Positions 4,853 to 26,958 of a stretch of DNA of 64,000 bases are shown piece by piece. A program made the translations under genes and the position numbers. Source of the stretch: Aulosira sp. ZfuVER01 (GTDB taxonomy: Bacteria; Cyanobacteriota; Cyanobacteriia; Cyanobacteriales; Nostocaceae); contig JAVRCV020000004.1 of the NCBI GenBank assembly GCA_034530615.2, positions 1 through 64,000 on the forward strand, read 5' to 3'. The notes under the pieces were generated by a model, which had not been told where the DNA came from, ran no database searches, and saw only the letters and a list, made by a program, of their open reading frames with translations. The first letter of the stretch is position 1, and each line of letters opens with the position of its first letter.

Positions 4853-6352
4853 GTGAAGACTGTATCTCCCTCTGCTGAAGAACTACTACAACACTCGCCT
4901 CCTCTAGAACTCATCAAGCCCTTACCGACATCAGCACCCATACTCAAGACAGACTCGCCGCCAAAAATTTCTAAACAAGCTACTCGCACTAGCTTAAAGG
5001 CATCCACGATAGATGGAGTGTTTGCCACGATTTTTTCCAACATTACCGGCGGCGTCTTACTGGTTAACTTCTTACTTGAGTTAGGTGCTAGTCCAGTAGA
5101 AATCGGCTTGTTATCTTCAATTCCCTTGCTGGTGAATTTCTTACAACCATTAGGAGCCTATCTTGCAGATCGCACTTCCAGCCGTCATTGGTATACCCTG
5201 GCAATTTTTGGCCCTTCCAGACTGCTGTGGTTGATTTTAGTAGCGGGTATTGTTTGGTTCTCCAGTTATGGCACCAAATCTCATCAATTAGTAACTTGGA
5301 CGCTAGCAATAATTCTGATTACCAATATCCTGGGAGCCTTGGGCGGTTGTGCTTGGTTTAGCTGGATGGCTGCTTTAGTGCCCCCTCCCTTACGCGGGCG
5401 TTATTTTGGCTTGCGCAATAGTGCTGCTAGCTTGGCTAATCTCTTGTCTGTACCAGTCTTGGGATATGCAATTTCAGCCTGGCCTGGTGGGGGAATTCAA
5501 GGTTACGGCGTACTGTTGTTTGTTGGCGTAATCATCGGCCTCATCAGTTTGGCTTGTCAGTTTTGGATGGTGGATGTAAATCCCCAAGTTTATCGCTCCG
5601 GTAAAGCTTCATCTCAACATCAGGAAAATCCCGACAGCCCCCAACCAAACACATTCAGCATCCTCAAAGATACCAACTTCTTGAAGTTTCTGCTCTATTT
5701 TGGCGTGTGGACATTCGCCATGAACCTCAGCGCCCCGTTTTTTAACCTTTATATGTTGAAAAACCTAGATTTAGACTTGACTACAGTCACAATTTACGCC
5801 AGCTTAATTGCCGGAGCAAACTTAGTTATGCTCGTACTCTGGGGTAAGTTGGCTGATAAGGTAGGAAATCGTCCACTGCTATTGTTAGTTGGCGTTTTAA
5901 TTGCAGTCACACCATTATTTTGGCTGGGTGCTGGAAATGACTCACTTTCTGTGTGGATATGGCTACCTCTGATACACCTGGTGTCTGGTGGTTTTGGAGC
6001 AGCGATTGACTTGTGTAACAGTAATATTCAGATGGAAATGGCTCCTTTGGATCGGCCTTCTCAATATTTTGCGATCGCGGCAGCTGTTACTGGTGTTAGC
6101 GGTGGTTTAGGTTCAGCAACAGGTGGTTTTTTAGCCCAGCTAGATATTATCGGTGGCTTAAGCGGACTATTTGCTCTGTCTGCGGCTTTGCGATTAATTG
6201 CGCTTTTGCCCCTAATATTTGTGCGAGAACCCCGCAGCAAGTCTATTGCTGATGCGATCGAACAAATTCTCCCCTTTAAAGCAAAAGCAGAGTTAGTTTC
6301 AGCAGTTCAAGGTTCCGCGCCACCTCGACAACCAGAAACAATCATATTATGA
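4853..6352 (+). CDS. MFS transporter
   Basis: About 12 hydrophobic segments; MFS motif A-like GAYLADRTSSR and WGKLADKVGNRP. Confidence 0.9.
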   Translation: MKTVSPSAEELLQHSPPLELIKPLPTSAPILKTDSPPKISKQATRTSLKASTIDGVFATIFSNITGGVLLVNFLLELGASPVEIGLLSSIPLLVNFLQPLGAYLADRTSSRHWYTLAIFGPSRLLWLILVAGIVWFSSYGTKSHQLVTWTLAIILITNILGALGGCAWFSWMAALVPPPLRGRYFGLRNSAASLANLLSVPVLGYAISAWPGGGIQGYGVLLFVGVIIGLISLACQFWMVDVNPQVYRSGKASSQHQENPDSPQPNTFSILKDTNFLKFLLYFGVWTFAMNLSAPFFNLYMLKNLDLDLTTVTIYASLIAGANLVMLVLWGKLADKVGNRPLLLLVGVLIAVTPLFWLGAGNDSLSVWIWLPLIHLVSGGFGAAIDLCNSNIQMEMAPLDRPSQYFAIAAAVTGVSGGLGSATGGFLAQLDIIGGLSGLFALSAALRLIALLPLIFVREPRSKSIADAIEQILPFKAKAELVSAVQGSAPPRQPETIIL

Positions 6353-9329: not shown

Positions 9330-10400
9330 ATGAGTACAGTCATTCAACCTCGTCGTGGATTAAATATTGCGCAAATATGGGATAGTTTTTGCCAATGGAT
9401 AACTAGCACTGAAAATCGCTTGTATATTGGATGGTTTGGGGTGTTAATGATTCCGACGCTGTTAGCAGCTAGCATCTGTTTCGTTATCGCCTTTATTGCT
9501 GCACCAAGCGTAGATATGGATGGCATTAGAGAACCGATAATTGGTTCTATTATGGGTGGTAATAACATGATTACTGCTGCTGTAGTGCCAACTTCTGCGG
9601 CAATTGGGCTGCATTTCTACCCAATTTGGGAAGCCGCTTCTCTAGATGAATGGCTTTACAATGGTGGGCCCTATCAACTAATTGTGCTGCACTTTCTGAT
9701 TGGAATTTGGTGCTATCTAGGTAGACTTTGGGAAATTAGCGTTAATTTAGGTCTACGTCCTTGGCTGGCTGTGGCGTTTAGCGCACCTGTAGCAGCAGCA
9801 ACAGCTGTGTTGCTAGTTTATCCTATTGGTCAAGGTAGCTTTTCTGATGGATTACCGTTAGGAATAGCTGGTACGTTTCACTTTATGTTGGCATTCCAAG
9901 GGGATCACAACATACTGATGCATCCTTTCCACATGTTAGGAGTTGCTGGCATATTTGGTGGGGCGCTATTGAGTTCATTGCATGGTTCTTTGGTGGCATC
10001 AACTCTGATTAGGAAAACTCAGGAGAATGAAACACCAAGTGCAGGCTATCAATTTGGCCAATCTTATGTCACTTACCACTATCTAGCAGGGCATAGCGGT
10101 TTCTTGGGACGCTTGCTAATTCCTTGGTTTGCTAGTAGAAATCACCGCGCTTTTCACTTTTTGCTAGCAGCATTACCAACATTGGGTATTTGGTTTGCCG
10201 CTATAGGTGTGGGTACAATGGCCTTCAACTTGAATGGATTAAACTTCAATCACTCCATTTTAGATAGCAGAGGTGAAGTAGTAAGAACAGACGCCGATAT
10301 AGTAAACCGGGCGAATTTGGGACTTCAGGTAATGCACGCACCTAATGTTCACCATTTTCCAATGGTTATATCTGCTGGTGAATCAATACCAGTAAGTTAA
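9330..10400 (+). CDS. psbA: Photosystem II D1 protein, atypical rogue/sentinel (group 2) form
   Basis: [42 protein letters not shown]; Mn-cluster ligands altered (E189D, E333A, D342V, A344S in standard numbering). Confidence 0.95.
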
Positions 10401-11637: not shown

Positions 11638-14088
11638 TTATCCAACAGTCTGAACTACCGCCTCCGCAAAGTTTTGACTACCTTGCATATACTCTTCCAA
11701 ACTAAACGAATCTACTTGAATTGCATCATTACGGGCAAACTCCGCTTCACAGATAAGTTCAACATCTTTCTCGCTAATCACCCCAGTTTTCAAGGCTGCT
11801 GAAATTAACTCATCGGGTTTTAGCTGTGGTAGTTTCCCTGCATAGCTAGCGTTTTTAATGGTTTTAAATAGTGGTTCAGCTTGGGATAACAATGTGAAAG
11901 CTCGTTCTAAGCGTCCCAAGGCTTCATCACTGCTGCGAGGAATATGAATACCTGCGGTGATGCGATCGCGTATTTGTCCAGGAGTTTGTAATTTACGCGC
12001 AACTTCGCTACCGAGTTTGTCAGTAGGTAGAGAACCGATGGGATTAAGTCGCCACCACCAAGCAAATAAGTTACCTAAAACTGGCACAGGTGAGTTTTCG
12101 AGAATCCCCTCAAAACCTTCTTGCATCTGCGCAAAAGCATATTGCATCGCCCAGTGAACAAAAGGTAAGTCTTCTGTTTTTCGTCCTTCGGCTTCAAAGC
12201 GTCGGAGAGTTGCAGTTGCTAAATACATCCAAGTAAGAATATCCGCAAACCTTCCTGTTAATTTCTCCCGTCGCTTCAAAGTTCCACCAAACGAGAACAT
12301 AGCAATATCAGTCAGTAAGGCAAAGCTAGCAGATGCCCAGTCTAATTTGCGGTAGTATTTGGCTGTCGCACCTGGAACTGGCGAAGGTGCCAAATTACCA
12401 CGAGTAATATTGAGAATTAGAGATCGGAAAGTATTACGCACCGTCAACCCTAGATGATGCCAGAAAGCGCGATCGAAAGCCGGAACATCTGATTGATTTA
12501 GGGCTGTAATCTCCTGATAAACATAAGGATGACAGCGAATTGCCCCTTGTCCAAAAATCATCAAGGTGCGGGTGAGAATATTTGCGCCTTCAACGGTAAT
12601 GGAAATCGGGGTTGCTGTATAAATATTTGCTAATAAATTTCTCGGGCCGCGACAAATTCCCGAACCGCCCATAATATCCATGCCGTCGTTAATTATTTTG
12701 CGGGAGATTTCGGTCAAACTGTATTTGGCGATCGCAGAAACTACCGCAGGTTGTTCTCCATTATCTACCGCACCGCAAGTATAAGTTCGCGCAGCCTCCA
12801 TTAAGTAGGTAAGACCGCCAATTCTTGCCAAAGGTTCTTCTACACCTTCAAAACGACCAATCGACAAACCGAACTGCTGCCGCACCACAGCATGAGCGCT
12901 GGTAACTCTTGCTACTAACTTCGCTACGCCCGTACAGCTAGCCGGGAAGCTAATTCCCCTACCTGCTGCGAGGCTTTGCATGAGCATTTTCCAACCATTA
13001 CCAGTTTGTTCCACACCGCCGATAATTTGGTCAACGGAAATAATGACGTTATGTCCTTCAGTAGGCGAATTGTAGAAAGGCACACCCATTGGATCGTGCC
13101 GTCTGCCCATGATTACGCCAGGTGTATTGGTAGGAATTAAAACGCAAGTAATGCCAACTTCTTTACCTTTACCTAAGTAATTTTCCGGGTCACGTAATTT
13201 GAAAGCTAATCCTAAAAGAGTTGCGATCGCAGCTAAGGTAATATATCGTTTCTTCCAATTCAACCGCAGATAAAGCTTGCCATCCTCACCTCTAAATACT
13301 GTTCCTTCAGATTTGATGCTGGCGGCATCTGACCCCGCAGTCGGTTCTGTGAGTGCAAAACAAGGAATTTCTTCACCTCGTGCGAGGCGCGGCAGGTAAT
13401 AATTTTTCTGCTCCTGTGTTCCGTAGCGGAGTAATAATTTTGCCGGGCCAAGTGAGTTTGTTACCCCTACAGTAGCGATATGGGTAAAAGAACGTGATGC
13501 TAACTTTGTCATCACATTGCTATAGGCAAAGTTAGAAAATCCCAAACCGCCATACTCTTGAGGAATCATCATCCCCAAAAAGCGTTCTTGTTTGAGATAG
13601 TCCCAAACTTCCGGCGGTAAATCCTTGCGACGGTAAATTTCCCAATCACTCACCATCCGACAAACTTGTTCTACCGGGCCATCAAGAAACGCTTGCAGTT
13701 CGGGAGTGACTAGAGGATATGGTTCTTGATTAATTCTTTGAAAGTTTGGTCTACCAGAGAAGAATTCACCATCTACCCAAACATTACCAGCTTCAATGGC
13801 TGCGCGTTCAGTATCAGAGATTTTTGGTAATAAATTAAAGGCTTTGATGGCTTTAATTAAGGGTGATGTGAGAATTGTTTGCCGCAGAATTGGGATATTT
13901 AAAATGAGAGCGATCGCGCCAAAAATCACCCATGCCCAAATAGGGGCGTGGAGAGATATTAGTACTGTTGCAAAATAAAGCGACCAAACCCACAATGGAA
14001 CGCCGATGTAACCAAGCAATAGTGATAGAAAAATTAGTGTTGAAACTATTATGGTTGGATGAATAAGGTTCATTATGTTTTCACCCAT
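11638..14088 (-). CDS. fadE: Acyl-CoA dehydrogenase, E. coli FadE-type (membrane-anchored, ~815 aa)
   Basis: N-terminal TM segment, PKISDTERAAIEAG, CFALTEPTAGSDA, catalytic ITVEGANIL, IFGQGAIRCHPY. Confidence 0.93.
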   Translation of the reverse strand: MGENIMNLIHPTIIVSTLIFLSLLLGYIGVPLWVWSLYFATVLISLHAPIWAWVIFGAIALILNIPILRQTILTSPLIKAIKAFNLLPKISDTERAAIEAGNVWVDGEFFSGRPNFQRINQEPYPLVTPELQAFLDGPVEQVCRMVSDWEIYRRKDLPPEVWDYLKQERFLGMMIPQEYGGLGFSNFAYSNVMTKLASRSFTHIATVGVTNSLGPAKLLLRYGTQEQKNYYLPRLARGEEIPCFALTEPTAGSDAASIKSEGTVFRGEDGKLYLRLNWKKRYITLAAIATLLGLAFKLRDPENYLGKGKEVGITCVLIPTNTPGVIMGRRHDPMGVPFYNSPTEGHNVIISVDQIIGGVEQTGNGWKMLMQSLAAGRGISFPASCTGVAKLVARVTSAHAVVRQQFGLSIGRFEGVEEPLARIGGLTYLMEAARTYTCGAVDNGEQPAVVSAIAKYSLTEISRKIINDGMDIMGGSGICRGPRNLLANIYTATPISITVEGANILTRTLMIFGQGAIRCHPYVYQEITALNQSDVPAFDRAFWHHLGLTVRNTFRSLILNITRGNLAPSPVPGATAKYYRKLDWASASFALLTDIAMFSFGGTLKRREKLTGRFADILTWMYLATATLRRFEAEGRKTEDLPFVHWAMQYAFAQMQEGFEGILENSPVPVLGNLFAWWWRLNPIGSLPTDKLGSEVARKLQTPGQIRDRITAGIHIPRSSDEALGRLERAFTLLSQAEPLFKTIKNASYAGKLPQLKPDELISAALKTGVISEKDVELICEAEFARNDAIQVDSFSLEEYMQGSQNFAEAVVQTVG

Positions 14089-14119
14089 GTGAATAAAGGT
14101 CTTAAAATCTCACGCAGAG

Positions 14120-14166
14120 GAGGACACTTCCGTGGGCGGGTTTCCCGACTTGAGGAAAGTGTCCGT
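14120..14166. repeat. SDR5-like small dispersed repeat
   Basis: GGACACTTCC-GTGGGCGGGTTTCCCGACTTG-AGGAAAGTGTCC; same family as 18507-18580 and 43111-43200. Confidence 0.7.
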
Positions 14167-14252
14167 TGCGCAGAGGCGCAGAGAGTAAGAGCAAACTTTC
14201 CTTAAAAACACTCCGCGTAACTTTGCGCCAACCTCTGCGTCCCTCTGCGTTT

Positions 14253-15434
14253 CTAAATCATCAAATTCTCAAACACCGCCGCTGCACCCATTCCACCGCC
14301 TACACACATCGTCACCAAACCATAACGGACGCTACGTCGTTTCATTTCGTGGAAGAGGGTAGCTGTGAGTTTCGCACCAGTACAACCGAGAGGATGACCA
14401 AGAGCGATCGCACCACCGTTGACATTGACGATTTCTTCGTTGAGTCCGAGTTTGCGAATTACAGCCAAGCTTTGAGCAGCAAAAGCTTCGTTGAGTTCGA
14501 TTAAGCCAATGTCGTTTAAGGTCAAACCGACTTGTTTTAGAACTTTTGGTACCGCTTCCACTGGGCCAATACCCATAACTTCCGGGGCGACACCAGCAAC
14601 TGCAAAGCCTAACATCTTACCCATTGGACGGACATCAAGCATCTGCATCATGCGATCGCTCATCACTACTGTTGCAGCTGCACCATCTGACATTTGCGAT
14701 GAGTTACCCGCAGTTACAGCACCACCCATCCGAAATACAGGTTGCAATTTCATCAAGGCTTCCATACTGGTATCAGCACGCGGGCCTTCATCCATCGTCA
14801 AGACTTTTTCTATCGGTCGCGGAGTGCCATCTACATAAAGTACGTCCCGCACTGTCAGTGGTACGATTTCCTCTACAAACCGACCTTGCCGAATAGCAGT
14901 TAAAGCTTTTTGATGGGAACGCAGCGCAAAAGCATCCTGTTCTTGGCGGGAGATTTCGTAATGCTGCATGACGTTTTCGGCTGTAATCCCCATCGTGCAG
15001 TAAACCTTGGGTAGATCCACCATCATGTCTGGATTGGGAGCCAAATAATGTCCGCCCATCGGAATCAAACTCATCGATTCCACACCACCCGCGACAATTA
15101 CTTCCGCGTGTCCTGCCATAATTGCTTGGGATGCGATCGCAATACTTTGCAGCCCAGAAGCACAGAAGCGATTCACAGTCATACCTGCTACAGAATCAGG
15201 TAAACCTGCACGTTGGGCAATTAATCGCCCGATATTAAAACCTTGTTCTGCTTCTGGAAAAGCACAACCCATAATTACATCATCAATGTATACAGGTTCT
15301 AAATCTTTAACTTTCTCAATTGCTGCTTTAACTACAACTGCACCCATATCATCAGGACGCATATTATGTAGCGTACCTCGTGGCGCTTTGCCTACAGGTG
15401 TGCGCAGGCTACTAACTATATAGGCTTCTTTCAT
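14253..15434 (-). CDS. fadA: Acetyl-CoA C-acyltransferase (3-ketoacyl-CoA thiolase)
   Basis: NRFCASG, NEAFA, GHPLG and TMCVGGG catalytic motifs intact. Confidence 0.95.
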
Positions 15435-15565
15435 AGGTTTTCACCAAATTTTTAGATATTGAAGTTGAGAAAGACGCGGGGACTGAGGGACGTGGTGACG
15501 CGGTGATGTAACGAGAACAGAGAAGGGAATACTAGAAAAGTAGAGAATTACTGGAAAGTTTGGTC

Positions 15566-15976
15566 ATGGGAAACATTCGTTCGTTTAAAGAATTAAGGGT
15601 TTGGCAAAATGCGATAGACATCACAATGACAATTTTTGAGTTAACCAAATCCTTTCCATTAGAAGAACGCTATTCCTTAACAGACCAAATACGTCGTTCT
15701 TCTCGTTCTGTTGCTGCTAATATTTCCGAGGCTTGGAGAAAAAGAAGATATCCAGCTGCATTTATCAGTAAACTAAATGATGCAGAAAGTGAAGCAGCCG
15801 AAACTCAAACTTGGATTGAAATTGCTTTGAGATGTGGTTATTGGGATAAAGATGTAGCCCTAAAATTAGATACCCGATGTGAAGAAGTACTTAGTCAATT
15901 AGTAGCTATGGCCTCACATCCCGAAAAATGGACTATCCACTCCAATTCATCTCCATCCCGCTCAACTCGTTCATAA
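15566..15976 (+). CDS. Four-helix-bundle protein (23S rRNA IVS protein / S23-like family)
   Basis: FKELRVWQ, FPLEERYSLTDQIRRSSRSVAANISE, AESEAAETQTW signature. Confidence 0.92.
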   Translation: MGNIRSFKELRVWQNAIDITMTIFELTKSFPLEERYSLTDQIRRSSRSVAANISEAWRKRRYPAAFISKLNDAESEAAETQTWIEIALRCGYWDKDVALKLDTRCEEVLSQLVAMASHPEKWTIHSNSSPSRSTRS

Positions 15977-16049
15977 ATCTCCTATTCTCGTTATCTCATC
16001 TTATCTTTCTCCGCTGTCACCTCCCCGCGTCTCCAAGTCTCCGCGTCTC

Positions 16050-18419
16050 TTAATTCCTGAGAGGTTTTTTCGTCTTCAACGTATGAGCAAACCGTTCTAG
16101 CGTTTTCGGTTGCTGTAACAGTGGTAAAAAGGACTCTCTTTCCAATTTCGATAAATAGTCCTCATCAACCAACGCAGGCTTAGTCAGTTCCCCACCAGTC
16201 ATTACATAGGCCAAGCGACTAGCTAAATAATGGTCATACTCAGAAATAAAACCTCCCTGCTGCATGACATACGCCGCGTGTTCTAACATCGCCCGCGCCG
16301 GACGACCTAGCACCATGATGGCGTTACGTTCTGGTGGGGGCATATAACCTATGTTGTCCAGACACAGCACTTCCTCTTTCGCTACAGACAAAATTCTGTC
16401 CGCATTCATCACAATCTTGGTTGTGGGTGAGAGGAAGCCTAATTCCTGTCCTTCATAAGCGCTGCTGGAAACCTTGGCCATGCCAATAGTTTCAAACACT
16501 TTCCGCAGGAAGGGTTGAATATCTTGTGGTGACTCGCTTGCGGCTTGATCGGCAGCCCAAGTGACCATCCGCATAATACCGCCAGCCCCAGGAATTAAAC
16601 CAACGCTGAGTTCTACCAGTCCGATGTAAGTTTCTGCTGCTGCCACTACATGGGGACAACCTAAGACTAATTCACAACCTCCGCCTAAAACCCGTCCGAC
16701 AATTGCGGCAACAATTGGTTTGGGGAAATATTTAAGGCGTTGCAGTAATGCTTGGAATTTGACGATTAAATCGGCAATACCTTTACCGTTATCTGTCTGG
16801 GCTAACATGGCCATTTCTGCCAAATTCGCGCCACCAGAGAAGTTGGCACTTTCGTTACCAATGACTAATCCCCGGTAATCGCTGTTCTCGATAATATCTA
16901 AGACCGCAGCTAAACCTTCTACGACTTTTAAAGTCAGGGTATGGCCTTTGGAATGGAATTCATACAAAACTACTCCATCGCCTATATCCAGCAAAGAAGC
17001 TTCTGAGTTTTGCCACAAGATATTTTTGGCATCAGCTTTGATAACTGGTATGAGAATTTCATCTGTTGGGGCTTTTGGTTGTTCGCTAATACAAACAGCA
17101 CAAGCATCAACTACTTTGTGTTCAGCCCAAGATAGCCTGTCTTTTTGATAGAAACTCTGCACGCCATTATCGTGCATCTTTTCTACCCACTCAGGCACAG
17201 GGATACCAGCAGCCTTCATGTCTGCTAATACCGTCTCAAAGCCAAGCATATCCCAAATTTCAAAGGGGCCGAGTTCCCAGGCGAAACCCCAACGAATTGC
17301 CCGATCAATATCTGCGGGTTTGTCGGCAATTTCAGGGATGCGACGGGCGCTGTAACCTAAGATATCTAAGGTTGATTTGCGGAAAAAGGCTCCTGCTCGA
17401 CCAAGATCGTGATAGAGTTTGCGCAGGCGATCGCCTAGATCGCTAATTTTCCCAATTGCCTCAATATCCCCCAAATCTATGGGTTTAGCAGGTTCATAAG
17501 CCAGTGTCGTGGGATTAATCGAGAGAATTTCTTTACCTTGTTTTTTATAAAATCCTTGACCTGTTTTTGACCCTAACGTCCCTGTTTCTACAAGTTTCTT
17601 CATTAAGGCTGGTACTCGCAACACTTCCCGGCTTTCATCGTGGGGAATGGCTGGGTAAAGGTTGTGCGCCACATACATCAATGTATCTAGCCCTACTACA
17701 TCAGCAGTGCGGAATGTCGCTGATTTTGGTCGTCCGGCAATTACTCCTGTTAAGGTATCAATTTCTTCAATTGTGTAACCTTGTTCCGTCACACCCTTTA
17801 TCCCCAGCATGGTTGCATACATACCGATGCGGTTGGCAATAAAGTTTGGTGTGTCTTTGGCTACTACTACGCCTTTACCGAGATGTATCCTGCCAAACCA
17901 TTGCATTCTTTCAACGATTTGCTGGTCAGTATCCGGTGTCGGAATTAACTCTAATAATTTCAGGTAGCGTGGTGGGTTAAAAAAGTGAGTACCTAAAAAC
18001 CTCTTCCGGAAAGATTCTGAACGCCCTTGAGCAATTTGATTGATGGGTAAGCCACTAGTATTACTAGATACTACCGTATCATCACGAATTGTACTTTCGA
18101 TTCGCGCCATCAAATCTTGTTTAATAGCGAGATTTTCTACGACAACTTCGATTACCCAATCAACATTAGCAATGCGGTCAAAATGTTCATCAAAATTGCC
18201 CAAAATGATGCGACGGGCTGTTTTTTTTGTAAATAAAATTGGTGGAGATTGCTTCAGCGCTTTTTTAAATGCTGTTTCCACTACATCATTTTTATTGTCG
18301 CCTTTAGCCGCAATATCCAATAATTGAACTGTTAGTCCAGCATTAGCTAGGTGTGCGGCGATTTGAGTTCCCATCACCCCTGCACCTAATACTGCGGCTG
18401 TTCGGAACGGTTTAAACAT
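16050..18419 (-). CDS. 3-hydroxyacyl-CoA dehydrogenase / enoyl-CoA hydratase (FadN-type, HAD N-terminal, ECH C-terminal)
   Basis: AAVLGAGVMG Rossmann motif, SSNTSG, HFFNPP, FIANRIG; ECH motifs GGGCE and VELSVGLIPGAGG. Confidence 0.93.
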   Translation of the reverse strand: MFKPFRTAAVLGAGVMGTQIAAHLANAGLTVQLLDIAAKGDNKNDVVETAFKKALKQSPPILFTKKTARRIILGNFDEHFDRIANVDWVIEVVVENLAIKQDLMARIESTIRDDTVVSSNTSGLPINQIAQGRSESFRKRFLGTHFFNPPRYLKLLELIPTPDTDQQIVERMQWFGRIHLGKGVVVAKDTPNFIANRIGMYATMLGIKGVTEQGYTIEEIDTLTGVIAGRPKSATFRTADVVGLDTLMYVAHNLYPAIPHDESREVLRVPALMKKLVETGTLGSKTGQGFYKKQGKEILSINPTTLAYEPAKPIDLGDIEAIGKISDLGDRLRKLYHDLGRAGAFFRKSTLDILGYSARRIPEIADKPADIDRAIRWGFAWELGPFEIWDMLGFETVLADMKAAGIPVPEWVEKMHDNGVQSFYQKDRLSWAEHKVVDACAVCISEQPKAPTDEILIPVIKADAKNILWQNSEASLLDIGDGVVLYEFHSKGHTLTLKVVEGLAAVLDIIENSDYRGLVIGNESANFSGGANLAEMAMLAQTDNGKGIADLIVKFQALLQRLKYFPKPIVAAIVGRVLGGGCELVLGCPHVVAAAETYIGLVELSVGLIPGAGGIMRMVTWAADQAASESPQDIQPFLRKVFETIGMAKVSSSAYEGQELGFLSPTTKIVMNADRILSVAKEEVLCLDNIGYMPPPERNAIMVLGRPARAMLEHAAYVMQQGGFISEYDHYLASRLAYVMTGGELTKPALVDEDYLSKLERESFLPLLQQPKTLERFAHTLKTKKPLRN

Positions 18420-18506
18420 ACTTCACCCTTCCTTCTTCGATTTTGGATTTTGGATTAAATAATAGACTTCTTGTATATAGGGGTTCTGATAACGAACCAC
18501 AGAGAC

Positions 18507-18580
18507 GAGGCAGTGCGTTGGGCGGGCTTTGCCGACTTGTAGACGCCGGAGGCGGCTTCCCGCAGGGTAGCAACTGCCGT
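18507..18580. repeat. Nested small dispersed repeats
   Basis: GGCAGTGCGTTGGGCGGGCTTTGCCGACTTG[TAGACGCC...GCAGGG]TAGCAACTGCCGT. Confidence 0.65.
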
Positions 18581-18717
18581 ACTGAGAACACAGAGGAATG
18601 AGTTTTTGGAATACTGTTAGAAATGCAAAAAACAGAAGAATTTTACTCAAAATAAATATCTTCGTTCAAAAACGTTTTTCTTCTGCCTTCTGCCCTCTGC
18701 CCTCTGCCTCAACCTAT

Positions 18718-21006
18718 TCATGAATTGAGAGACTGCGCAAATGCAGGACATGAAAATGTCGGACTAATAGGACATAAATTATCTATTTTTCCTATATTTA
18801 CATCCCCATGTCTTTGCATCCTCTTTTCTTCATACATTGCATTAATTTCTTGAGCAAACACTTCCAGAATTTTTGCTCGATTTACCTGCTGATCTGGTGT
18901 AATCATGCCATTTTCTACAGTGAGTGTGGCATTAATTAGCTGGAATTTTTTTACATTTGACCAATGAGGTAAGTGACAATTTGCTTCATCAACTAATACT
19001 TGATATAAAGCGATAATACAAGGATGTTGCAGCAAATCTTCGGTAGGTAAATCTATGCCGATTGATAAAGCCTGCTGATGCAAGTTTTCTAAATCTGGAA
19101 AAATCAGCATAGCACAGAATTTACATTCTGAACCGACAGTAATGGCGTGTGCTACTAAAGGAGATTTGTTGAGCTTGCTTTCTATTGGTTGAGAGGTAAC
19201 ATACTTACCTGTGGAAAGTTTAAAGCGGCTTTTCTTTAAACCGATAATCTTGAGAAAGCCTTCAGATGTAAATTCTCCTAAGTCGCCTGTATGTAACCAA
19301 CCTTGAGCATCAATTAGTTGCTGGGTTGCTTCGGGGTTTTTGTAATAGCCTTGAGTAATGTAAGGACTTCTTGTGAGAATTTCGCCATCTTCAGCGATCG
19401 CAACTTCTACACCAGCAATTGGTACGCCTACGGTTCCTGCACGGTTGAATTGACGGCGATTACAAGCTACTGCTGAACTGGTTTCAGTTAAACCGTAGCC
19501 TTGGAGAATTTTTATTCCCGCAGCCGCCAATAAATTTACAATTTCTGCTTTTAAACCTGCACCGCCGCTAAGTAGGTATTTGATATTACCGCCAAAAACA
19601 GCACGCCATTGCGAAAATACTAAACTATCTGCCACCTTCAACATCAAAGCATCTTGATGTTGCGGTTTTTTACCCAATTCATATTTTTGGGCTAATTTTA
19701 CTGCCCAATTCATCATCGATTGGGATAGGGGGAGATAGAGTTGTCTCGCTGAGATAGCATTGCGCCGGGAAAGTAAATGTGTTTTCAGGGTTCTCCCTGT
19801 TGTGGACAACTGAAGGGTGGCTTCCCGCAGGGTAGCAAGTGCCGTTTTCCCTTCCCACGTGGTGGGAAACCTGAAGGGTAAAATGGTGACGCGCTGATGC
19901 GCTAAGTTTACCCGTTTCTCTGGTTCTTTTTTGCGCCGTGTCTGATTTTTCTCTCCTGTTTCTATAAGCTTGCTATAAACTTTTTCTAATAGCAAAGGAA
20001 CTGTTGCAAATATTGTTGGTTTAACTTCTTTCAGGTGTTTTAATACCCGATTAGAATTACTGAAATAAATACTGTGACCATAGTTAATATGACCGTAGAC
20101 AAAGACACGAGCCAAAACATGAGTTAATGGTAGAAATGAAAGAATTACCTCCTGTGAGCCGAATGCTAAATCAGGAATTCCGGTAAACATTGCTAGTGCA
20201 TTCGCGGAGAGATTTTCATGGGTGAGCATTACCCCTTGAGGTTCTCCAGTAATGCCAGGAATATAAATAATAGTGGCAAGGTCATCAGCTATTATTTGGG
20301 AATTAAGTTCCTGTATACTAGCTTCGGAATTATTTATCCGTCCCTGAGAGCGAATTTCCTCCAAGGAAAAGACTTCAGGAAAAAGACGCGGTGACGAGAG
20401 GACGCGGTGACGCGGCGATGTTTCAGCAAGAGATTGCAGAGGATGCAGTGATGGGATGAGACAAGAAGAATTTTTTTCCCATGTCACCGCGTCTCTATGT
20501 CTCCCCATCTCCGTGTCATCTCGTTGATGCCATTTATTAGGAACATCAGCAACTATTACTGTCTTGAGATGAGTTGCATTTCCCAGGTAAGGAATAATTT
20601 GCGAAAGCAACTCTAGATCGGAAATAATCAACGTCTTTGCTTCTGTGTGCTGCAAGATGAAAATAATGTGTTCAATTGTTTGGGTTAAATCAATTGGCAC
20701 ATTTACCAAACCTGCGAGTAAGGAACCGATGTCAGCAATACAAAAGTTGACATCGCTGTGCATGAGTAAAGCGATTCTATCGCCTTTTTCTATTTGCAAA
20801 CCCAGCAAACCCAACGCTAATTCTGCGGCAGCCGTGCGTAATTCGTGATTAGATAAAGGTTGCCAGCCTGTGTCTGTAAACTGGTTTAAGGCGTGGGGAT
20901 TGGGAAAGCGATCGCACGCTTCATCTAATAAAGAAGGCAAAGTACGCCCTAAGATTACTTCTCCTGAGTTAGGAGGCGCTCTATAGGTCTGATCTGTAGA
21001 TAACAT
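18718..21006 (-). CDS. Long-chain fatty-acid--CoA ligase-like AMP-binding protein (degenerate motifs, in-frame insertions)
   Basis: QGYGLTETS, GTVG, GEIL, GWLHTGDLG, STGKYV present; P-loop reads YIPGITGEPQG. Confidence 0.88.
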   Translation of the reverse strand: MLSTDQTYRAPPNSGEVILGRTLPSLLDEACDRFPNPHALNQFTDTGWQPLSNHELRTAAAELALGLLGLQIEKGDRIALLMHSDVNFCIADIGSLLAGLVNVPIDLTQTIEHIIFILQHTEAKTLIISDLELLSQIIPYLGNATHLKTVIVADVPNKWHQRDDTEMGRHRDAVTWEKNSSCLIPSLHPLQSLAETSPRHRVLSSPRLFPEVFSLEEIRSQGRINNSEASIQELNSQIIADDLATIIYIPGITGEPQGVMLTHENLSANALAMFTGIPDLAFGSQEVILSFLPLTHVLARVFVYGHINYGHSIYFSNSNRVLKHLKEVKPTIFATVPLLLEKVYSKLIETGEKNQTRRKKEPEKRVNLAHQRVTILPFRFPTTWEGKTALATLREATLQLSTTGRTLKTHLLSRRNAISARQLYLPLSQSMMNWAVKLAQKYELGKKPQHQDALMLKVADSLVFSQWRAVFGGNIKYLLSGGAGLKAEIVNLLAAAGIKILQGYGLTETSSAVACNRRQFNRAGTVGVPIAGVEVAIAEDGEILTRSPYITQGYYKNPEATQQLIDAQGWLHTGDLGEFTSEGFLKIIGLKKSRFKLSTGKYVTSQPIESKLNKSPLVAHAITVGSECKFCAMLIFPDLENLHQQALSIGIDLPTEDLLQHPCIIALYQVLVDEANCHLPHWSNVKKFQLINATLTVENGMITPDQQVNRAKILEVFAQEINAMYEEKRMQRHGDVNIGKIDNLCPISPTFSCPAFAQSLNS

Positions 21007-21440
21007 TTTATCCCAGAAGAGTTTCTGACTCTTCCCCTCGTTATCAGTTATTAATCATCAGTTATCAGTGGTTCTTGTTTACTATTCACTGATAACTAAT
21101 ATGGGTATGAGGAAAATATTTTCCTCTTTCCCAATTTTTTTATGCTGAATAAAAATGCTCCAAGTCTCTGTTGAATAAATAATTATCTTCAGATACTTGA
21201 GCGCAGCCTAATGTCAGACTAGGTAATATTTAAGATGCCGACTTCTGCTACCTACATCCTGACAACTGCCAAATTTCTCCTTCCAATCTGGAATCTATTA
21301 AAGACAGAATTAGTGTTTCTTTAAGACTTAAAGCTATTTCTTAGCTAACGTCTTAAACCGAGCTTCTCTGTACTAATAATAATGTAGATCATGCTGGGGA
21401 TCAACGACAAGGTTTGTATCTTTTTCGCAAAGAAAGCCTT

Positions 21441-22340
21441 TTAACGAGACAAAGTTTCGGTATGCAAAGTGGGTATTTTTATCAGACACTTTGATGCTTG
21501 GTTGTCTATGTCTCCGTCCAAGTGCTTTTCTAGCCAATTCTCTAAATCTACTAGTACTTTCTGGTAATTAATATCTAGGTGAAAGTCATGATAGTCTCCA
21601 GGATACTCATAGCTTTCTTTATCGGGGTAAGTTACCTTTTGGAAAAAAGCCACGCTACCTTCTGGTGGTGTGATTTTATCGCCACTGCTATACAAAATCA
21701 ATAAAGGGACTTGTAATTCACAAGCATGAGTTGTTACCCATTTTTCAGTAGAGAAAAACTCCGCCGCCAGTCGCGCACTGCCATACTCGTGCCGTAATGG
21801 ATCTTGGTTGACGATGAAATTCGGGCCGCGTAAATTGGTGCCCTTATCCAGACCGACTTTCAGGCTAAAGTTTGGCCAAACTTGTGAAAGCATTCGCCCT
21901 AAAGCAACTTTCAGCAGTGGTAGGTTAACTTTTCCTAAAGCGGGGGCTGAGAGAATTAGTCCTTGCAAGCTTTGGGGAAAGCGCAAGGCATAATCTACAG
22001 CAATTACTGCTCCTAAACTGTGACCCCATAAAAAATATGCACAGCCTGAACCTCGTTCTTGAATGCGTGACAAGAAGGTGTGCAAATCTTCTCGCAACTC
22101 TGCCCAAGAATTAATATGTCCCCGTTGTCCGGGCGATCGCCCATGTCCTCGCAGATCAAAAGCGTAGACAGCATAACCTAAAGGTAGTAAATGCTGTACG
22201 GCAACTTGGAATAATCCGCTATGCGCTCCGAACCCGTGTACCATCGCAATCACTGCCCGTAATTCCCCCTCTGGCTGCCAGCTTTGGTAATAAAGGTCTA
22301 GACCTCCTGCTCCTCTGAAGGTTCCTTCGATGTGTGTCAT
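21441..22340 (-). CDS. Alpha/beta hydrolase, monoacylglycerol lipase / lysophospholipase family
   Basis: VHGFG, DLRGHGRS, GHSLG nucleophile elbow, downstream D and H candidates. Confidence 0.9.
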   Translation of the reverse strand: MTHIEGTFRGAGGLDLYYQSWQPEGELRAVIAMVHGFGAHSGLFQVAVQHLLPLGYAVYAFDLRGHGRSPGQRGHINSWAELREDLHTFLSRIQERGSGCAYFLWGHSLGAVIAVDYALRFPQSLQGLILSAPALGKVNLPLLKVALGRMLSQVWPNFSLKVGLDKGTNLRGPNFIVNQDPLRHEYGSARLAAEFFSTEKWVTTHACELQVPLLILYSSGDKITPPEGSVAFFQKVTYPDKESYEYPGDYHDFHLDINYQKVLVDLENWLEKHLDGDIDNQASKCLIKIPTLHTETLSR

Positions 22341-23214
22341 TGCTGTACCTACCAAATGCGTTTTTTTAGAATTTATGTCTCAAGACGCAATTGGAGATTG
22401 TTGTGTGTAGTTTATACGATTAGTAGCAGTAACTATAATAGTCAACGCTCAATTGCTGACTACAAAATTTGACAACTAATCGACTATTACCTAGTTAAAA
22501 CTTGGCCTTAAGTAGATACAATTTTGCCCGATTGGTCGCTACTTTACGGCGTTTGCCGATATTATCAGGCTTTGATTTAACGTAAGTAAAAATGCTGGTA
22601 TTAACAATCTACGTTTTGAGACCTTGATACAAATTGTTGAGAAATTTGTTCGGTCTCAAGATTTAGGTTTCAGAAGTCGTTGTGCATCTTTTTATATTGT
22701 ATTAATTCTATTCAATTGAATTGAGAATCTCAACAATTATTAGCGCTCAATCTACCATAAGAAGGGTAATAACAAGTTTGTTAAGACAGGTAGAGGTATA
22801 TATAAGGATGCATATACGCGAGGAAATAAATGGCGATCGCATTGCATCCTTTGTCAGCCATTCCAATTAAAACTTACCTTTTGCCCGGTCGCAGAGCGAA
22901 GTCGAGGTGCAGCCTTACTTCTACTTCCAAATTTTAGGAGCGATCGCCCGCAGCCATGAACAACAGAAAACTAATTTCTAGCACATAGCTAATAAAAACG
23001 GTGCTATTTAATAACCCATCCCAGAGATAGCCTTTACGTTTGGGTGTGACATTAAGCTTAAGAGCGCGAGTCCAGCCTATTATGTATTGCATCCAAACGA
23101 AAACCGCTATATTCGCTAGGGCTGCGCTAGTTAAACGTGATATCAAGTTTCTCGAAAAGATACGATAGATTTAAGATTAATTGCGCCTGAAGCTAATTCT
23201 CCCATAGCCAGCTT

Positions 23215-23427
23215 ATGCAAATTACTCTCAATCTGGACGAATCTCTTCTCAACGAAGCCTTACAGATTACTAAAATTTCCAACCAAGAAGAACTAATTAG
23301 CCTAGCGCTGCAAGAATTTGTGCGATCGCGTCGCAAGAAAAATCTTCTCGACCTCGCTGGACAAATTGAGTTTGCTCCGGACTTCGACCATAAAGCCCTG
23401 CGCGAAACTCGCCATGCTGCTGATTGA
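23215..23427 (+). CDS. vapB: VapB-family antitoxin
   Basis: ITLNLDESLLNEAL RHH-like N-terminus; overlaps the downstream PIN gene. Confidence 0.85.
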   Translation: MQITLNLDESLLNEALQITKISNQEELISLALQEFVRSRRKKNLLDLAGQIEFAPDFDHKALRETRHAAD

Positions 23428-23812
23428 TACATCGGTTTGGGTCAGCGTGTTCCGCGATCGCAGCGGTCAAGTTCGTCAACAGCTTGAAACTCTGATTGCC
23501 GATCGTGAAGTGTTTCTCACCCGATTCACTCAGTTGGAATTGCTTCAAGGGAGTTTAAACGAGCAAGAGTGGACTCTCCTCTCCACTTACCTGGAAACAC
23601 AAGATTACATTGAACCCACACCTCATTCCTGGCAGGCCGCTGCTCGCATTTACTATGAATTGCGCCGCCAAGGACTGACGGTTCGCAGCCCAATTGATTG
23701 CTGCATCGCTCAAGCTGCACTGGAAAATAATCTAATTTTGATTCACAACGATCGCGACTTTGAAACAATTGCCCAAGTGCGATCATTCCAACACCTTCGC
23801 TTTCAACCTTGA
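23414..23812 (+). CDS. vapC: VapC PIN-domain toxin
   Basis: LIDTSVW, ELLQG, DCCIA, HNDRDF acidic PIN motifs; start at ATG 23414. Confidence 0.92.
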   Translation: MLLIDTSVWVSVFRDRSGQVRQQLETLIADREVFLTRFTQLELLQGSLNEQEWTLLSTYLETQDYIEPTPHSWQAAARIYYELRRQGLTVRSPIDCCIAQAALENNLILIHNDRDFETIAQVRSFQHLRFQP

Positions 23813-24423: not shown

Positions 24424-26958
24424 ATGGTCAACTGGACTGGCTATTTAGAATCGCTCTGCAATGATGATAAATACATAAGATGGTGGAATGCTTACACGCT
24501 GACAGATGTAATTGGACACCAGCGAATTGAAAGAGAGCGATCGCCCTTTCTGCTAGATTTTATAGTGGAGACAGTCAAGCCAGCCAAGGGAGAACCCAAC
24601 CAAGCACAGGAGAAAACCGAGCGATTAGATGTGCTGGAAGGGTTGCGGAAATATGCCAAAGAACACGTATTACTAGTAGGACAGCCAGGTTCCGGGAAAT
24701 CCACAGTCTTAGCGCGGTTATTGCTGGAGGAGGCAGAGAAGGCGAGATCCCCCCTCAATCCCCCCTTTCTAAGGGGGGAAGTAAAATCTTCAGAACCCCC
24801 CTTAAAAAGGGGGGCTGGGGGGATCATCCCCGTGCTAGTAGAGTTGCGCTATTACCAAACTTCCGTACTGGATTTAATTCGTGACTTCTGCAAGCGCCAT
24901 CGCTTACTGCTGGATACTGCAACCATAGAACAACTGCTATTTGCTGGCGACTTACTGCTATTAGTGGATGGGATCAACGAATTGCCCTCAGAAGCAGCGC
25001 GACAAGACTTGTATAAATTCCGGCAAGACTACCAAAAAACCACATTAATGATATTCACCACGCGGGATTTAGGCGTGGGGGGCGATTTAGGCATTACCAA
25101 CAAGCTGGAAATGCAACCCCTGACAGCAGAACAGATGCAGCAGTTTGTCCGCGCCTATCTCCCTCAACAGGGAGCGCAGATGTTGCAGCATTTGGGTGAC
25201 AGGTTGCGGGAGTTGAGGGAAACGCCACTGCTGCTGATGATGCTTTGTTCTTTATTTAAAGCCACAGGTGACATACCGCCGAACTTGGGTTTGGTGTTTC
25301 GCCAGTTTACCCAAAGCTATGAGCGTCAATTTCATCAAGATATCCCAGTTACAGATGAGTCTCGGCGGCGGTGGTTTCCCTTATTAAAACATCTAGCTTT
25401 CCACATGACCAAAGGAGATAAGCTAACAGACTTAAATGTTGCCATACTCAGGTCAGAAGTAGAGGAAATTTTAACTCAGTTTTTGCAAGCTGAGAAATTT
25501 GATCGACCCCGTGACCTAGCTCTAAAATGGCTGCATGATTTACTCAATCATCACTTAATTCAACTTGGAGCCAACGATCAAATTGAATTTCGCCACCAAC
25601 TAATTCAGGAATATTACACCGCCGAATGCTTGCTCAAGCAGTTACCAAGCCTCAGTGATGACTGTCTCAAGGGAGAGTATTTGAATTATTTGAAATGGGC
25701 TGAATCCTTGAAATTGATGTTGGAATTGGTGGATGATGAGGCGCAGGCGCTGCGAGTGGTGAAGTTAGCCTTAGAGGTAGATCGGCAATTAGGGGCAAGG
25801 TTAGCAGGCGCGGTAAAGTCAGAATTGCAGCAACAGACAGTTAATTTAGTTGCTGGGTTAGAAATTCCTATGTTATTTAAAATCCAGCTTTTAGGTTTAA
25901 CAACATCGGACAAAGCAATTCCTCATCTGAATCAATTCATAGAAGATAAAGACTACTTTGTGCGTGATAGTGCGGTATCAGCCCTGAGAAAAATCACATT
26001 AGAACAGGCGATTCCCGAATTAATTAAATTGCTCGAACATCAAAACTACAAAGTGCGTATAAGTGTGGCATCAACCCTGAGAAAAATCAAATCAGAACAG
26101 GCGATTCGCGGATTAATTAAATTGCTCGAAGATAAAGACTCCTCTGTGCGTGCAATTGCAGCATCAGCCCTGGGACAAATTAAATCAGAACAGGCAATTT
26201 CCGGATTAATTAAATTGCTCGAAGATAAAGACTACTTTGTGCGTGATACTGCGGCATCAGCTCTGGGAGAAATCAAATCAGAGCTGGCGATTCCTAGATT
26301 AATTAAATGGCTTGAAGATGAAGACTACTTTGTGCGTGATAGTGCGGTATCAGCCCTGGGAAAGATCAAATCAGAGCTGGCGATTCCCGAATTAATTAAA
26401 TTGCTCGAACATCAAAACTCTAAAGTGCGTAGAAGTGTGGCATCTGCTCTGGGAGGCATCAAATCAGAGCTGGCGATTCCCGGATTAATTAAATTGCTCG
26501 AAGATAAAGACTCTAAAGTGCGTATAAGTGCGGCATCAGCCCTAGGAGAAATCCAATTAGAGCAGGCGATTGCTGGATTCATTAAATTGCTCGAAGATGA
26601 AGACTACGATGTGCGTGATAGTGCGGCATTCGCCCTCGGAGAAATCAAATCAGAGCTGGCGATTCCCGGATTAATTAAATTGCTCGAAGATCAAGACTGC
26701 GATGTGCGTATAAGTGCGGCATCAGCCCTGAGAAAAATCAACTTAGAGCAGGGGATTCTCGGACTAATTAAATTGCTCGAAGATGAAGAATCTTGGGTGC
26801 GTAGAAGTGCAGCATCATCTCTGGGAGAAATCAAATCAGAGGCGGCGATTCCCCCGCTGATGAATTTGCTAAACAATGAAAAATTTGTAGCAGCAAATAA
26901 TGGAGATACATTGCGTTATGCTCTACAAGTAATTGAAGCGATTACAGGAAAACTGTAA
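24424..26958 (+). CDS. NACHT NTPase with C-terminal HEAT (PBS-lyase-like) repeats
   Basis: Walker A GQPGSGKS, Walker B LLLVDGINE, FTTR, TPLLL, FRHQLIQEY; about ten 31-aa repeats. Confidence 0.92.
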   Translation: MVNWTGYLESLCNDDKYIRWWNAYTLTDVIGHQRIERERSPFLLDFIVETVKPAKGEPNQAQEKTERLDVLEGLRKYAKEHVLLVGQPGSGKSTVLARLLLEEAEKARSPLNPPFLRGEVKSSEPPLKRGAGGIIPVLVELRYYQTSVLDLIRDFCKRHRLLLDTATIEQLLFAGDLLLLVDGINELPSEAARQDLYKFRQDYQKTTLMIFTTRDLGVGGDLGITNKLEMQPLTAEQMQQFVRAYLPQQGAQMLQHLGDRLRELRETPLLLMMLCSLFKATGDIPPNLGLVFRQFTQSYERQFHQDIPVTDESRRRWFPLLKHLAFHMTKGDKLTDLNVAILRSEVEEILTQFLQAEKFDRPRDLALKWLHDLLNHHLIQLGANDQIEFRHQLIQEYYTAECLLKQLPSLSDDCLKGEYLNYLKWAESLKLMLELVDDEAQALRVVKLALEVDRQLGARLAGAVKSELQQQTVNLVAGLEIPMLFKIQLLGLTTSDKAIPHLNQFIEDKDYFVRDSAVSALRKITLEQAIPELIKLLEHQNYKVRISVASTLRKIKSEQAIRGLIKLLEDKDSSVRAIAASALGQIKSEQAISGLIKLLEDKDYFVRDTAASALGEIKSELAIPRLIKWLEDEDYFVRDSAVSALGKIKSELAIPELIKLLEHQNSKVRRSVASALGGIKSELAIPGLIKLLEDKDSKVRISAASALGEIQLEQAIAGFIKLLEDEDYDVRDSAAFALGEIKSELAIPGLIKLLEDQDCDVRISAASALRKINLEQGILGLIKLLEDEESWVRRSAASSLGEIKSEAAIPPLMNLLNNEKFVAANNGDTLRYALQVIEAITGKL
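24746..24825. repeat. Palindromic dispersed repeat inserted in frame in the NACHT gene
   Basis: Terminal inverted repeats GATCCCCCC / GGGGGGATC with two internal C-run/G-run hairpins. Confidence 0.8.

Follow-up and report, generated by a model that had tools for sequence, protein, structure and literature searches.

A beta-oxidation operon in the cyanobacterium Aulosira sp. ZfuVER01 whose FadD-like protein has lost the ATP-using residues

The first 64,000 nucleotides of contig JAVRCV020000004.1 from the cyanobacterium Aulosira sp. ZfuVER01 (the window) carry a cluster of fatty-acid beta-oxidation genes. A preliminary description, made from the letters alone, listed five co-oriented minus-strand genes and proposed that they cover lipid release, activation and all four steps of the beta-oxidation spiral. 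All five open reading frames (ORFs) lie where it had placed them, although a sixth, antisense ORF within the cluster had not been mentioned. The spiral enzymes appear intact, whereas the FadD-like protein is not an ordinary ligase; the name FadD* is used here for this protein without ATP/adenylation residues. The features of the locus are the following.

21441..22340 (ORF 21441-22355), minus strand: monoacylglycerol-lipase/lysophospholipase-like alpha/beta hydrolase, PF12146 (ORF call, Pfam)
18718..21006, minus strand: FadD*, long-chain acyl-CoA-synthetase-fold protein, PF00501/PF23562 (Pfam, alignment, AlphaFold2 (AF2) model)
20233..20265, minus strand: degenerate P-loop (motif A3) of FadD*, residues 248-258 (alignment)
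19201..19242, minus strand: motif A8 region of FadD*, with L590 in place of the conserved Arg and S593 in place of the hinge Asp
18748..19020, minus strand: C-terminal region of FadD* with C663, C677, C745 and C753; A10 Lys lost (Q707) (alignment)
16050..18419, minus strand: FadN-type 3-hydroxyacyl-CoA dehydrogenase/enoyl-CoA hydratase (HAD/ECH), PF02737/PF00725/PF00378, with H145 and E157, E583 and E603
15560..15976, plus strand: four-helix-bundle gene (23S-IVP family, PF05635), antisense, between fadN and the thiolase gene
14253..15434, minus strand: 3-ketoacyl-CoA thiolase, PF00108/PF02803, with C91, H347 and C377
11638..14088, minus strand: FadE, E. coli-type acyl-CoA dehydrogenase of 816 residues, catalytic E500, PF09317 (ACDH_C)

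Pfam and NCBIfam agree on the family names of the five ORFs. FadE scores above the cut-offs of NCBIfam PRK09463 and PRK13026 and reaches 902 with FadE_coli, below the cut-off of 1300 for that model. It possesses every E. coli-type feature tested, namely a length of ~810 residues, a hydrophobic N-terminus (windows beginning at residues 5-17 and 43-55 exceed a hydropathy of 1.8), the ACDH_C domain and the catalytic Glu. The lipase has the triad S113-D226-H256, numbered from the TTG at 22355, and its start is probably the ATG at 22340. The five genes are genuine, and they are intact and native to the host. HIP1 (highly iterated palindrome 1) occurs 11 times in the 10,718 bases of the cluster, that is 1.03/kb against 0.96/kb genome-wide, and 69 times in the window against 0.48 expected. 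The GC content of the cluster is at host level, and the contig of 194 kb has cyanobacterial neighbour genes. The eight HIP1 coordinates quoted in the preliminary description are all exact, and its argument for long residence rather than contamination is borne out by the host-like density.

The complete spiral set (acyl-CoA dehydrogenase, hydratase, 3-hydroxyacyl-CoA dehydrogenase, thiolase) is present with its catalytic residues. The intact motifs of FadE, thiolase and HAD/ECH, already noticed earlier, are kept in the host and in 37 FadE, 39 thiolase and 42 FadN cyanobacterial copies, and the lipase triad in 40/40 cluster or fused copies. Comparison with eight Nostocaceae relatives gives dN/dS (the ratio of nonsynonymous to synonymous substitution rates) of 0.05-0.14 for FadE, FadN, thiolase and lipase. 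In the host genome fadE, fadN and the thiolase gene each match only themselves (E 1e-5), and the thiolase at 14253-15434 is the only one found. Judged from their sequences, the spiral enzymes look alive and under selection. With the FadE/FadD/FadBA system of E. coli the operon shares the long membrane-type FadE with its ACDH_C domain and the same chemistry, and with Bacillus FadN-FadA-FadE it shares the HAD-ECH fusion of the FadN/Staphylococcus FadB architecture. It differs from both in having no active FadD in cis, no electron-transferring flavoprotein (ETF) and mostly no glyoxylate shunt.

The situation is different for FadD*. The P-loop pattern Y[TS]SG[TS]T is found in 0/175 distinct cyanobacterial copies as compared with 11/11 Rhodothermota orthologues, and the P-loop Lys is kept in 11/175. 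Likewise, the A8 Arg is kept in 0/175 copies (Rhodothermota 11/11) and the A10 Lys in 5/175 (Rhodothermota 9/11). Motifs A5 YGLT and A7 TGD are kept at 90% or more, the A5 acidic position being Glu in 122 and Gln in 53 of the 175 copies, and the A8 region keeps K591, K592, F595, K596, L597, G600, K601 and Y602. Among 157 positions invariant in the 11 Rhodothermota ligases, 102 are kept at 90% or more in FadD*, 37 are intermediate and 18 are lost. A profile search of 1.84 billion proteins gave, among its best 150 representatives, 19 degenerate and 128 canonical sequences and 3 not covering the P-loop. The 128 canonical sequences, the nearest such relatives of FadD*, have R590 in 128/128 and K257 in 123/128, while a single one of the 19 degenerate 50%-cluster representatives (P0311) retains the A8 Arg. 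Of five degenerate representatives checked for their taxonomy, the two with a taxon name are from cyanobacteria.

FadD* is nevertheless under purifying selection (dN/dS 0.15-0.27), and its AF2 model shows the full fold of the ANL superfamily (acyl-CoA synthetases, nonribosomal peptide synthetase adenylation domains and luciferases) with a mean confidence (pLDDT) of 82. The better fit of this model to thioester-forming ANL structures (root-mean-square deviation ~5 Å vs ~11 Å) is uninformative, as an intact Rhodothermus FadD used as control behaves alike, and FadD* has no match in the PDB at 1e-30. ANL enzymes depend on the P-loop, A8 and A10 motif residues for their activity, and single P-loop or A8 changes lower the activity of a model enzyme 100- to 2,000-fold (PMC8388817). 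Thus, FadD* resembles the long-chain acyl-CoA synthetases in its ANL fold and its A5 and A7 motifs, but not in its A3 P-loop, A8 Arg and A10 Lys. With these residues lost, the cluster contains no recognisable ATP-dependent acyl-CoA ligase; the loss of the residues is plain, and the activity has presumably gone with them. The earlier proposal that all steps are covered therefore holds for the spiral but not for a normal ATP-dependent activation, since FadD* is without the ATP-binding and catalytic residues, and the pathway must be fed in an unusual way.

A mechanistic analogue is offered by PtmA2, a non-adenylating acyl-CoA ligase of ANL fold that is reported to catalyze the second half-reaction only and to rely on a partner for adenylation (Wang et al. 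2018, as summarized in PMC6594144). The likeness is one of mechanism only: PtmA2 is absent from the top 60 sequence matches and from the listed fold matches of FadD*, and the operon encodes no adenylating partner. FadD* matches a PtmA2-like pattern only in part: the adenylation residues are lost and the A8 loop is kept, but the A8 Arg and the hinge Asp are also gone.

FadD* has in turn acquired conserved residues that are absent from the 11 Rhodothermota ligases, namely D106, H306, H311, H324, C663, C677, H678, P680 and a C745-x7-C753 tail. The four cysteines occur together in 149/175 copies and in 0/11 Rhodothermota orthologues; six copies lack all four together with the tail. C663 and C745 are lost together in nine copies, C745 alone in six and C663 alone in one. 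This co-loss hints at the pairs C663-C745 and C677-C753, though on the tree two of four independent pairs change the same way and none in the opposite way, which is not significant. A search of the ESM Atlas with the C-terminal part of FadD* returned AMP-binding C domains only. The tail may be akin to thioredoxin-regulated C-terminal extensions such as CP12. A tie between FadD* and the lipase is evident from fusions of the two, which account for 26 of 59 longer homologues found with the lipase and for its top 26 matches (counted as protein clusters). Carriers with names are Aphanocapsa sp. GSE-SYN-MK-11-07L and Tumidithrix helvetica, and Pseudanabaena sp. lw0831 (locus L027) has such a fusion as well. 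The A5 residue is Gln in all 26 fusions.

The operon is confined to a minority of cyanobacteria and is not peculiar to this lineage. Full-length FadE orthologues are present in 11/40 relatives, among them 7/14 of the same genus. A phylum-wide draw gave FadE in 13/401 genomes, consisting of the host, five others of its class and seven of a sister group (~50% identity), and FadN is found in 22/301 sampled genomes of the order (~7%), host included. The best 79 of 279 confirmed loci include 21 cyanobacterial ones; pooling these with further fetched regions and dropping six duplicates left 44 distinct cyanobacterial loci. In 43 of them the gene immediately upstream of fadN is fadD*. In the remaining one (L130, G612:C14:47911-50271) a long-branched fadN of 53% identity stands alone; fadD, fadA and fadE are missing from its surroundings, and the genome gives no match to FadE. 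Among the 43, the lipase gene is upstream in 22, fused in one, downstream of fadE in five and unseen in 11, and four loci are too short to tell. fadE stands on a separate locus or contig in two genomes, and no biosynthetic or branched-chain gene is among the conserved neighbours of the operon. We also note that an Lrp-type regulator adjoins the cluster in one locus only, and that FadN is ~30-40 residues shorter in L110-L115 (G573, G585 and G625, one genus), where a two-part match within one open frame identifies an in-frame deletion between the domains.

Phylogenies and a synteny survey were used to trace the origin of the block. The cyanobacterial copies form one clade each in FastTree trees of FadN (43 of 80 rows, support 99, with 15 Anaerolineae loci and duplicates excluded) and FadE (37 rows, support 100), and both clades adjoin Rhodothermota/Bacteroidota/Calditrichia sequences. 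In the FadD tree those degenerate rows that reach 520 residues or more group with the cyanobacterial loci in a single clade (46 rows, support 98), which is surrounded by canonical enzymes. FadD* thus descends from a Rhodothermota-type FadD and not from Aas, the acyl-ACP synthetase (ACP, acyl carrier protein); the Aas-like protein of the host belongs to the same ANL long-chain family but is only 25% identical to it. Rhodothermota are the nearest sister group in all three trees, and their loci (Rhodothermus, Roseithermus and metagenome-assembled loci L038-L057) read TetR-fadD-fadN-fadA-fadE, with the same four fad genes in the same order and 47-71% identical. They differ in having intact ligase motifs (11/11), the TetR gene in front, no lipase and no Cys tail; the TetR gene was not found beside the cyanobacterial loci. 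The horizontal acquisition suggested earlier thus stands for the block, but E. coli-type FadE and Bacillus-type FadN were not brought together here; since the gene order is shared with Rhodothermota, the two came as one block. A single acquisition from a Rhodothermota-like lineage, followed by degeneration of the ligase on the cyanobacterial stem, would account for these trees. That the transfer ran into cyanobacteria is suggested by the FadD tree and by the fact that the ligase is intact elsewhere. Vertical descent from the non-photosynthetic sister lineages was rejected, as five sister-group loci show a lone fadE at 46-49% identity and no operon. Trees of FadN+FadA and of RpoB from the same 29 genomes have 12/26 splits in common (patristic Spearman 0.66), and most family-level groups hold with some conflicts, which agrees with a long-resident operon that has at times moved between cyanobacteria.

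The absence of ETF from the window, noted earlier, extends to the whole host genome, where neither etfAB nor ETF-QO (ETF-quinone oxidoreductase) was found, and ETF is present in 0/32 cluster-bearing cyanobacterial genomes (~25 distinct) as opposed to 8/9 Rhodothermota/Calditrichia and 4/4 sister-group genomes. This absence is not necessarily a defect: E. coli FadE has no known ETF partner and may reduce quinones directly or leak electrons to oxygen (PMC11495604, PMC9329746). On the complete chromosome of Roseithermus sacchariphilus (L040) the ligase of the operon is intact, and what reads as a further acyl-CoA-dehydrogenase-like ORF separates fadD from fadN; the genome gives no ETF match, so this species is possibly a second ETF-free host for this FadE type. 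The search of the host genome for glyoxylate-shunt genes, which the preliminary description had called for, found none except a weak partial match to the isocitrate lyase family. Malate synthase occurs in 2/43 cluster carriers and 0/29 non-carriers; one of the two genes (G033:C299:16889-17623) shares its contig with the fad operon at a distance of ~8 kb.

As for other sources of activated acyl chains, 8/27 PF00501 matches of the host were classified, and among these are an Aas-like gene, two acetate-CoA ligases, a fatty acyl-AMP ligase (FAAL) and a PRK08162-type acyl-CoA synthetase. The Aas-like gene (C68:76707-78683) has intact motifs; the name Aas is our assignment, NCBIfam giving no such name. 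A cyanobacterial Aas is able to form acyl-CoA as well (PMC10114076). The PRK08162-type gene (C83:69076-70746) is intact; each of the 14 other genomes in the genus has it, with or without the operon, as do 3/58 genomes outside the genus. As a general partner it was rejected, with 9/43 carriers vs 8/29 non-carriers having it.

Expression data are available for Chlorogloeopsis fritschii PCC 9212, in which UYEDRAFT_05553-05557 repeat the five genes and their order (fadE, fadA, fadN, fadD, lysophospholipase; PMC6424891). A homologue of FadD* from this species (P0045) shares the dead motifs and the Cys tail of the host protein. In far-red light the wild type raises fadE 22.4-fold, fadA 19.5-fold, fadN 20.6-fold, fadD 10.1-fold and the lipase 7.8-fold, with the gene neighbouring the operon at 0.69-fold. 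The same five genes rise 18- to 97-fold in rfp mutants unable to acclimate, and a second experiment shows rises of 3- to 11-fold. Isocitrate lyase (1.3-fold) and malate synthase (0.6-fold) do not follow the operon in the wild type (PMC6424891). Co-expression under energy limitation was found in this orthologous cluster only. At the host locus, one metatranscriptome (share 0.12) has contigs of relatives over all five genes, which cannot show expression. Ho & Bryant (2019) took 05553-05556 as ordinary beta-oxidation genes, and the accessible sections of that paper do not cover the lipase, the degeneracy of the ligase or flux (PMC6424891). The operon is thus already in print, contrary to the notion that it is unreported; what is new is the dead, lipase-linked, cysteine-tailed ligase. 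A literature search, with most subscription journals outside it, found nothing on the degenerate ligase, the lipase fusion or a flux test. According to the accessible sections of two reviews there is no functional beta-oxidation in cyanobacteria (PMC8252387, PMC10114076): most, not all, genomes lack fadE, fadN and fadA (PMC8252387), and the classical gene set has never been reported (PMC10114076).

We consider it somewhat probable that the cluster is an energy-starvation beta-oxidation operon that burns acyl chains of the cell's own lipids through a non-standard entry step. The lipase, for which family and triad are established, would free fatty acids from membrane lipids. These would be activated in trans with ATP by an ordinary activating enzyme, most likely the acyl-ACP synthetase. 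FadD* is presumably unable to use ATP but still has its acyl pocket, its A8 loop and some of the adenosine site; it may act beside the lipase as an ATP-independent hand-over protein that passes the activated acyl group (acyl-AMP or acyl-ACP) to CoA; alternatively, it may channel the fatty acid to the activating enzyme. The spiral would then be run by FadE, FadN and the thiolase, whose catalytic residues are in place. Without ETF, the electrons of FadE probably reach the quinone pool of the thylakoid or plasma membrane by way of its membrane anchor and C-terminal domain. The acetyl-CoA would serve respiration or re-synthesis and not net sugar production, because the glyoxylate shunt is absent. 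Of the earlier suggestion that this lineage may catabolize fatty acids, a low-energy role is likely in view of the 8-22-fold far-red co-induction in C. fritschii, but normal ATP-dependent activation by the FadD-like protein is not supported.

Several observations weigh against this reading. Besides the adenylation residues, FadD* has lost the A8 Arg and the hinge Asp, in 53/175 copies also the A5 Glu, and the further family-conserved residues Y106 and R338 are replaced, so binding of AMP or CoA may be gone too. No lipase is seen near the operon in 11/43 loci. No frame of the length of the dienoyl-CoA reductase FadH was found in the host genome, so polyunsaturated thylakoid chains may stall; a search for the short-chain dehydrogenase/reductase (SDR) type gave only generic SDR matches of 29-33% identity. 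The other gene of the long-chain acyl-CoA-synthetase family in C. fritschii falls to 0.37-fold in the wild type when the operon rises (PMC6424891). The literature search found no labelling or enzyme data for any cluster-bearing strain, and Fischerella sp. PCC 9431 incorporated intact d11-hexanoate (PMC8252387); this genus often has the cluster, the status of the strain itself not having been checked.

The strongest rival holds that beta-oxidation runs while FadD* is purely a regulatory or scaffolding pseudoenzyme, such as a Cys redox switch or a fatty-acid sensor, with acyl-CoA supplied by Aas or another ligase. Nearly every nucleotide-handling residue is changed, H306, H311, H324, C677, H678, P680 and the C-x7-C tail are new and invariant, the TetR gene of the Rhodothermota operon was not found beside the cyanobacterial loci, and the intact PRK08162-type synthetase is at hand in the host. 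Nevertheless, the acyl-pocket and A8-loop residues are kept as well as in active relatives, the six copies without all four cysteines still keep the operon, and the PRK08162-type gene is present in only 9/43 cluster-bearing genomes. We regard a pure pseudoenzyme as possible but unlikely. More doubtful is the elaboration in which the lipase and FadD* jointly carry acyl chains from membrane lipid or acyl-ACP to CoA without ATP, a bridge switched by thioredoxin-sensitive disulfides C663-C745 and C677-C753 that would clamp the new C-terminal tail, with beta-oxidation activated in the dark and FadE reducing plastoquinone directly.

It is improbable that the spiral enzymes act instead on other chains (branched, isoprenoid or secondary-metabolite) or trim only for a few cycles. 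Such a role would agree with the failure to find ETF, the glyoxylate shunt and a FadH-length reductase in the host genome, with the patchy distribution (7/14 genomes of the genus) and with the view of the reviews, in their accessible sections, that cyanobacteria have no functional beta-oxidation. However, the enzymes belong to standard fatty-acid families, the conserved neighbours include no biosynthetic or branched-chain gene, and the labelling in PMC8252387 used three strains whose cluster status is not stated in its accessible part. Quite improbable, too, is that FadD* is still an ATP-dependent acyl-CoA ligase using non-canonical residues. It holds the ligase position of the operon under purifying selection and keeps YGLT, TGD and two A8 lysines, but several P-loop positions vary freely (at least eight residue types at position 252), and where single P-loop or A8 mutations cost 100- to 2,000-fold (PMC8388817), here the P-loop, A8 Arg and A10 Lys are all lost. 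Contamination or a decaying remnant, to which the patchy presence might point, is refuted by the host-level HIP1 density and GC, the 194-kb contig with cyanobacterial neighbours, open frames with dN/dS far below 1 in all five genes, and the co-induction in a relative.

Of the remaining features, the four-helix-bundle gene is an insertion and no part of the conserved operon, most orthologous loci being without it. It lies antisense inside the operon in five loci (the window, L149, L125, L128 and L022) at two different gene junctions, and three further copies are present elsewhere in the host genome. Promoter and terminator scans gave chance-level results only. An inverted repeat TAGTCA ... TGACTA at ~22410-22440, some 70-100 bases upstream of the lipase start and partly conserved in Nostocaceae, is a candidate operator or promoter element. 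Genes for a VapC-family PIN toxin (23318-23812, plus strand) and a NACHT plus HEAT-repeat protein (24424-26958, plus strand) lie close by on the upstream side of the cluster. A divergent psbA at 9330-10400 (plus strand) has 66-67% identity to three ordinary copies and carries E130L, E189D, E333A, D342V and A344S; we presume that it resembles the "rogue" D1. No further complete divergent psbA was found in the host genome, and a psbA-like stretch at C6:174745-175271, matched in three pieces, is possibly frameshifted or truncated. A functional link of this psbA with the fad operon was rejected, since the two are syntenic in one close relative (G003) only.

Natural-product labelling and fatty-acid engineering rely on cyanobacteria lacking beta-oxidation, and the operon marks strains and conditions in which this rule needs testing. 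It also supplies a host naturally free of ETF in which to ask how electrons leave E. coli-type FadE, a question still open (PMC11495604, PMC9329746). FadD* itself is a conserved pseudo-ligase that is mis-annotated in databases as a long-chain acyl-CoA synthetase, and it may reveal how an ACP-based lipid economy connects to CoA.

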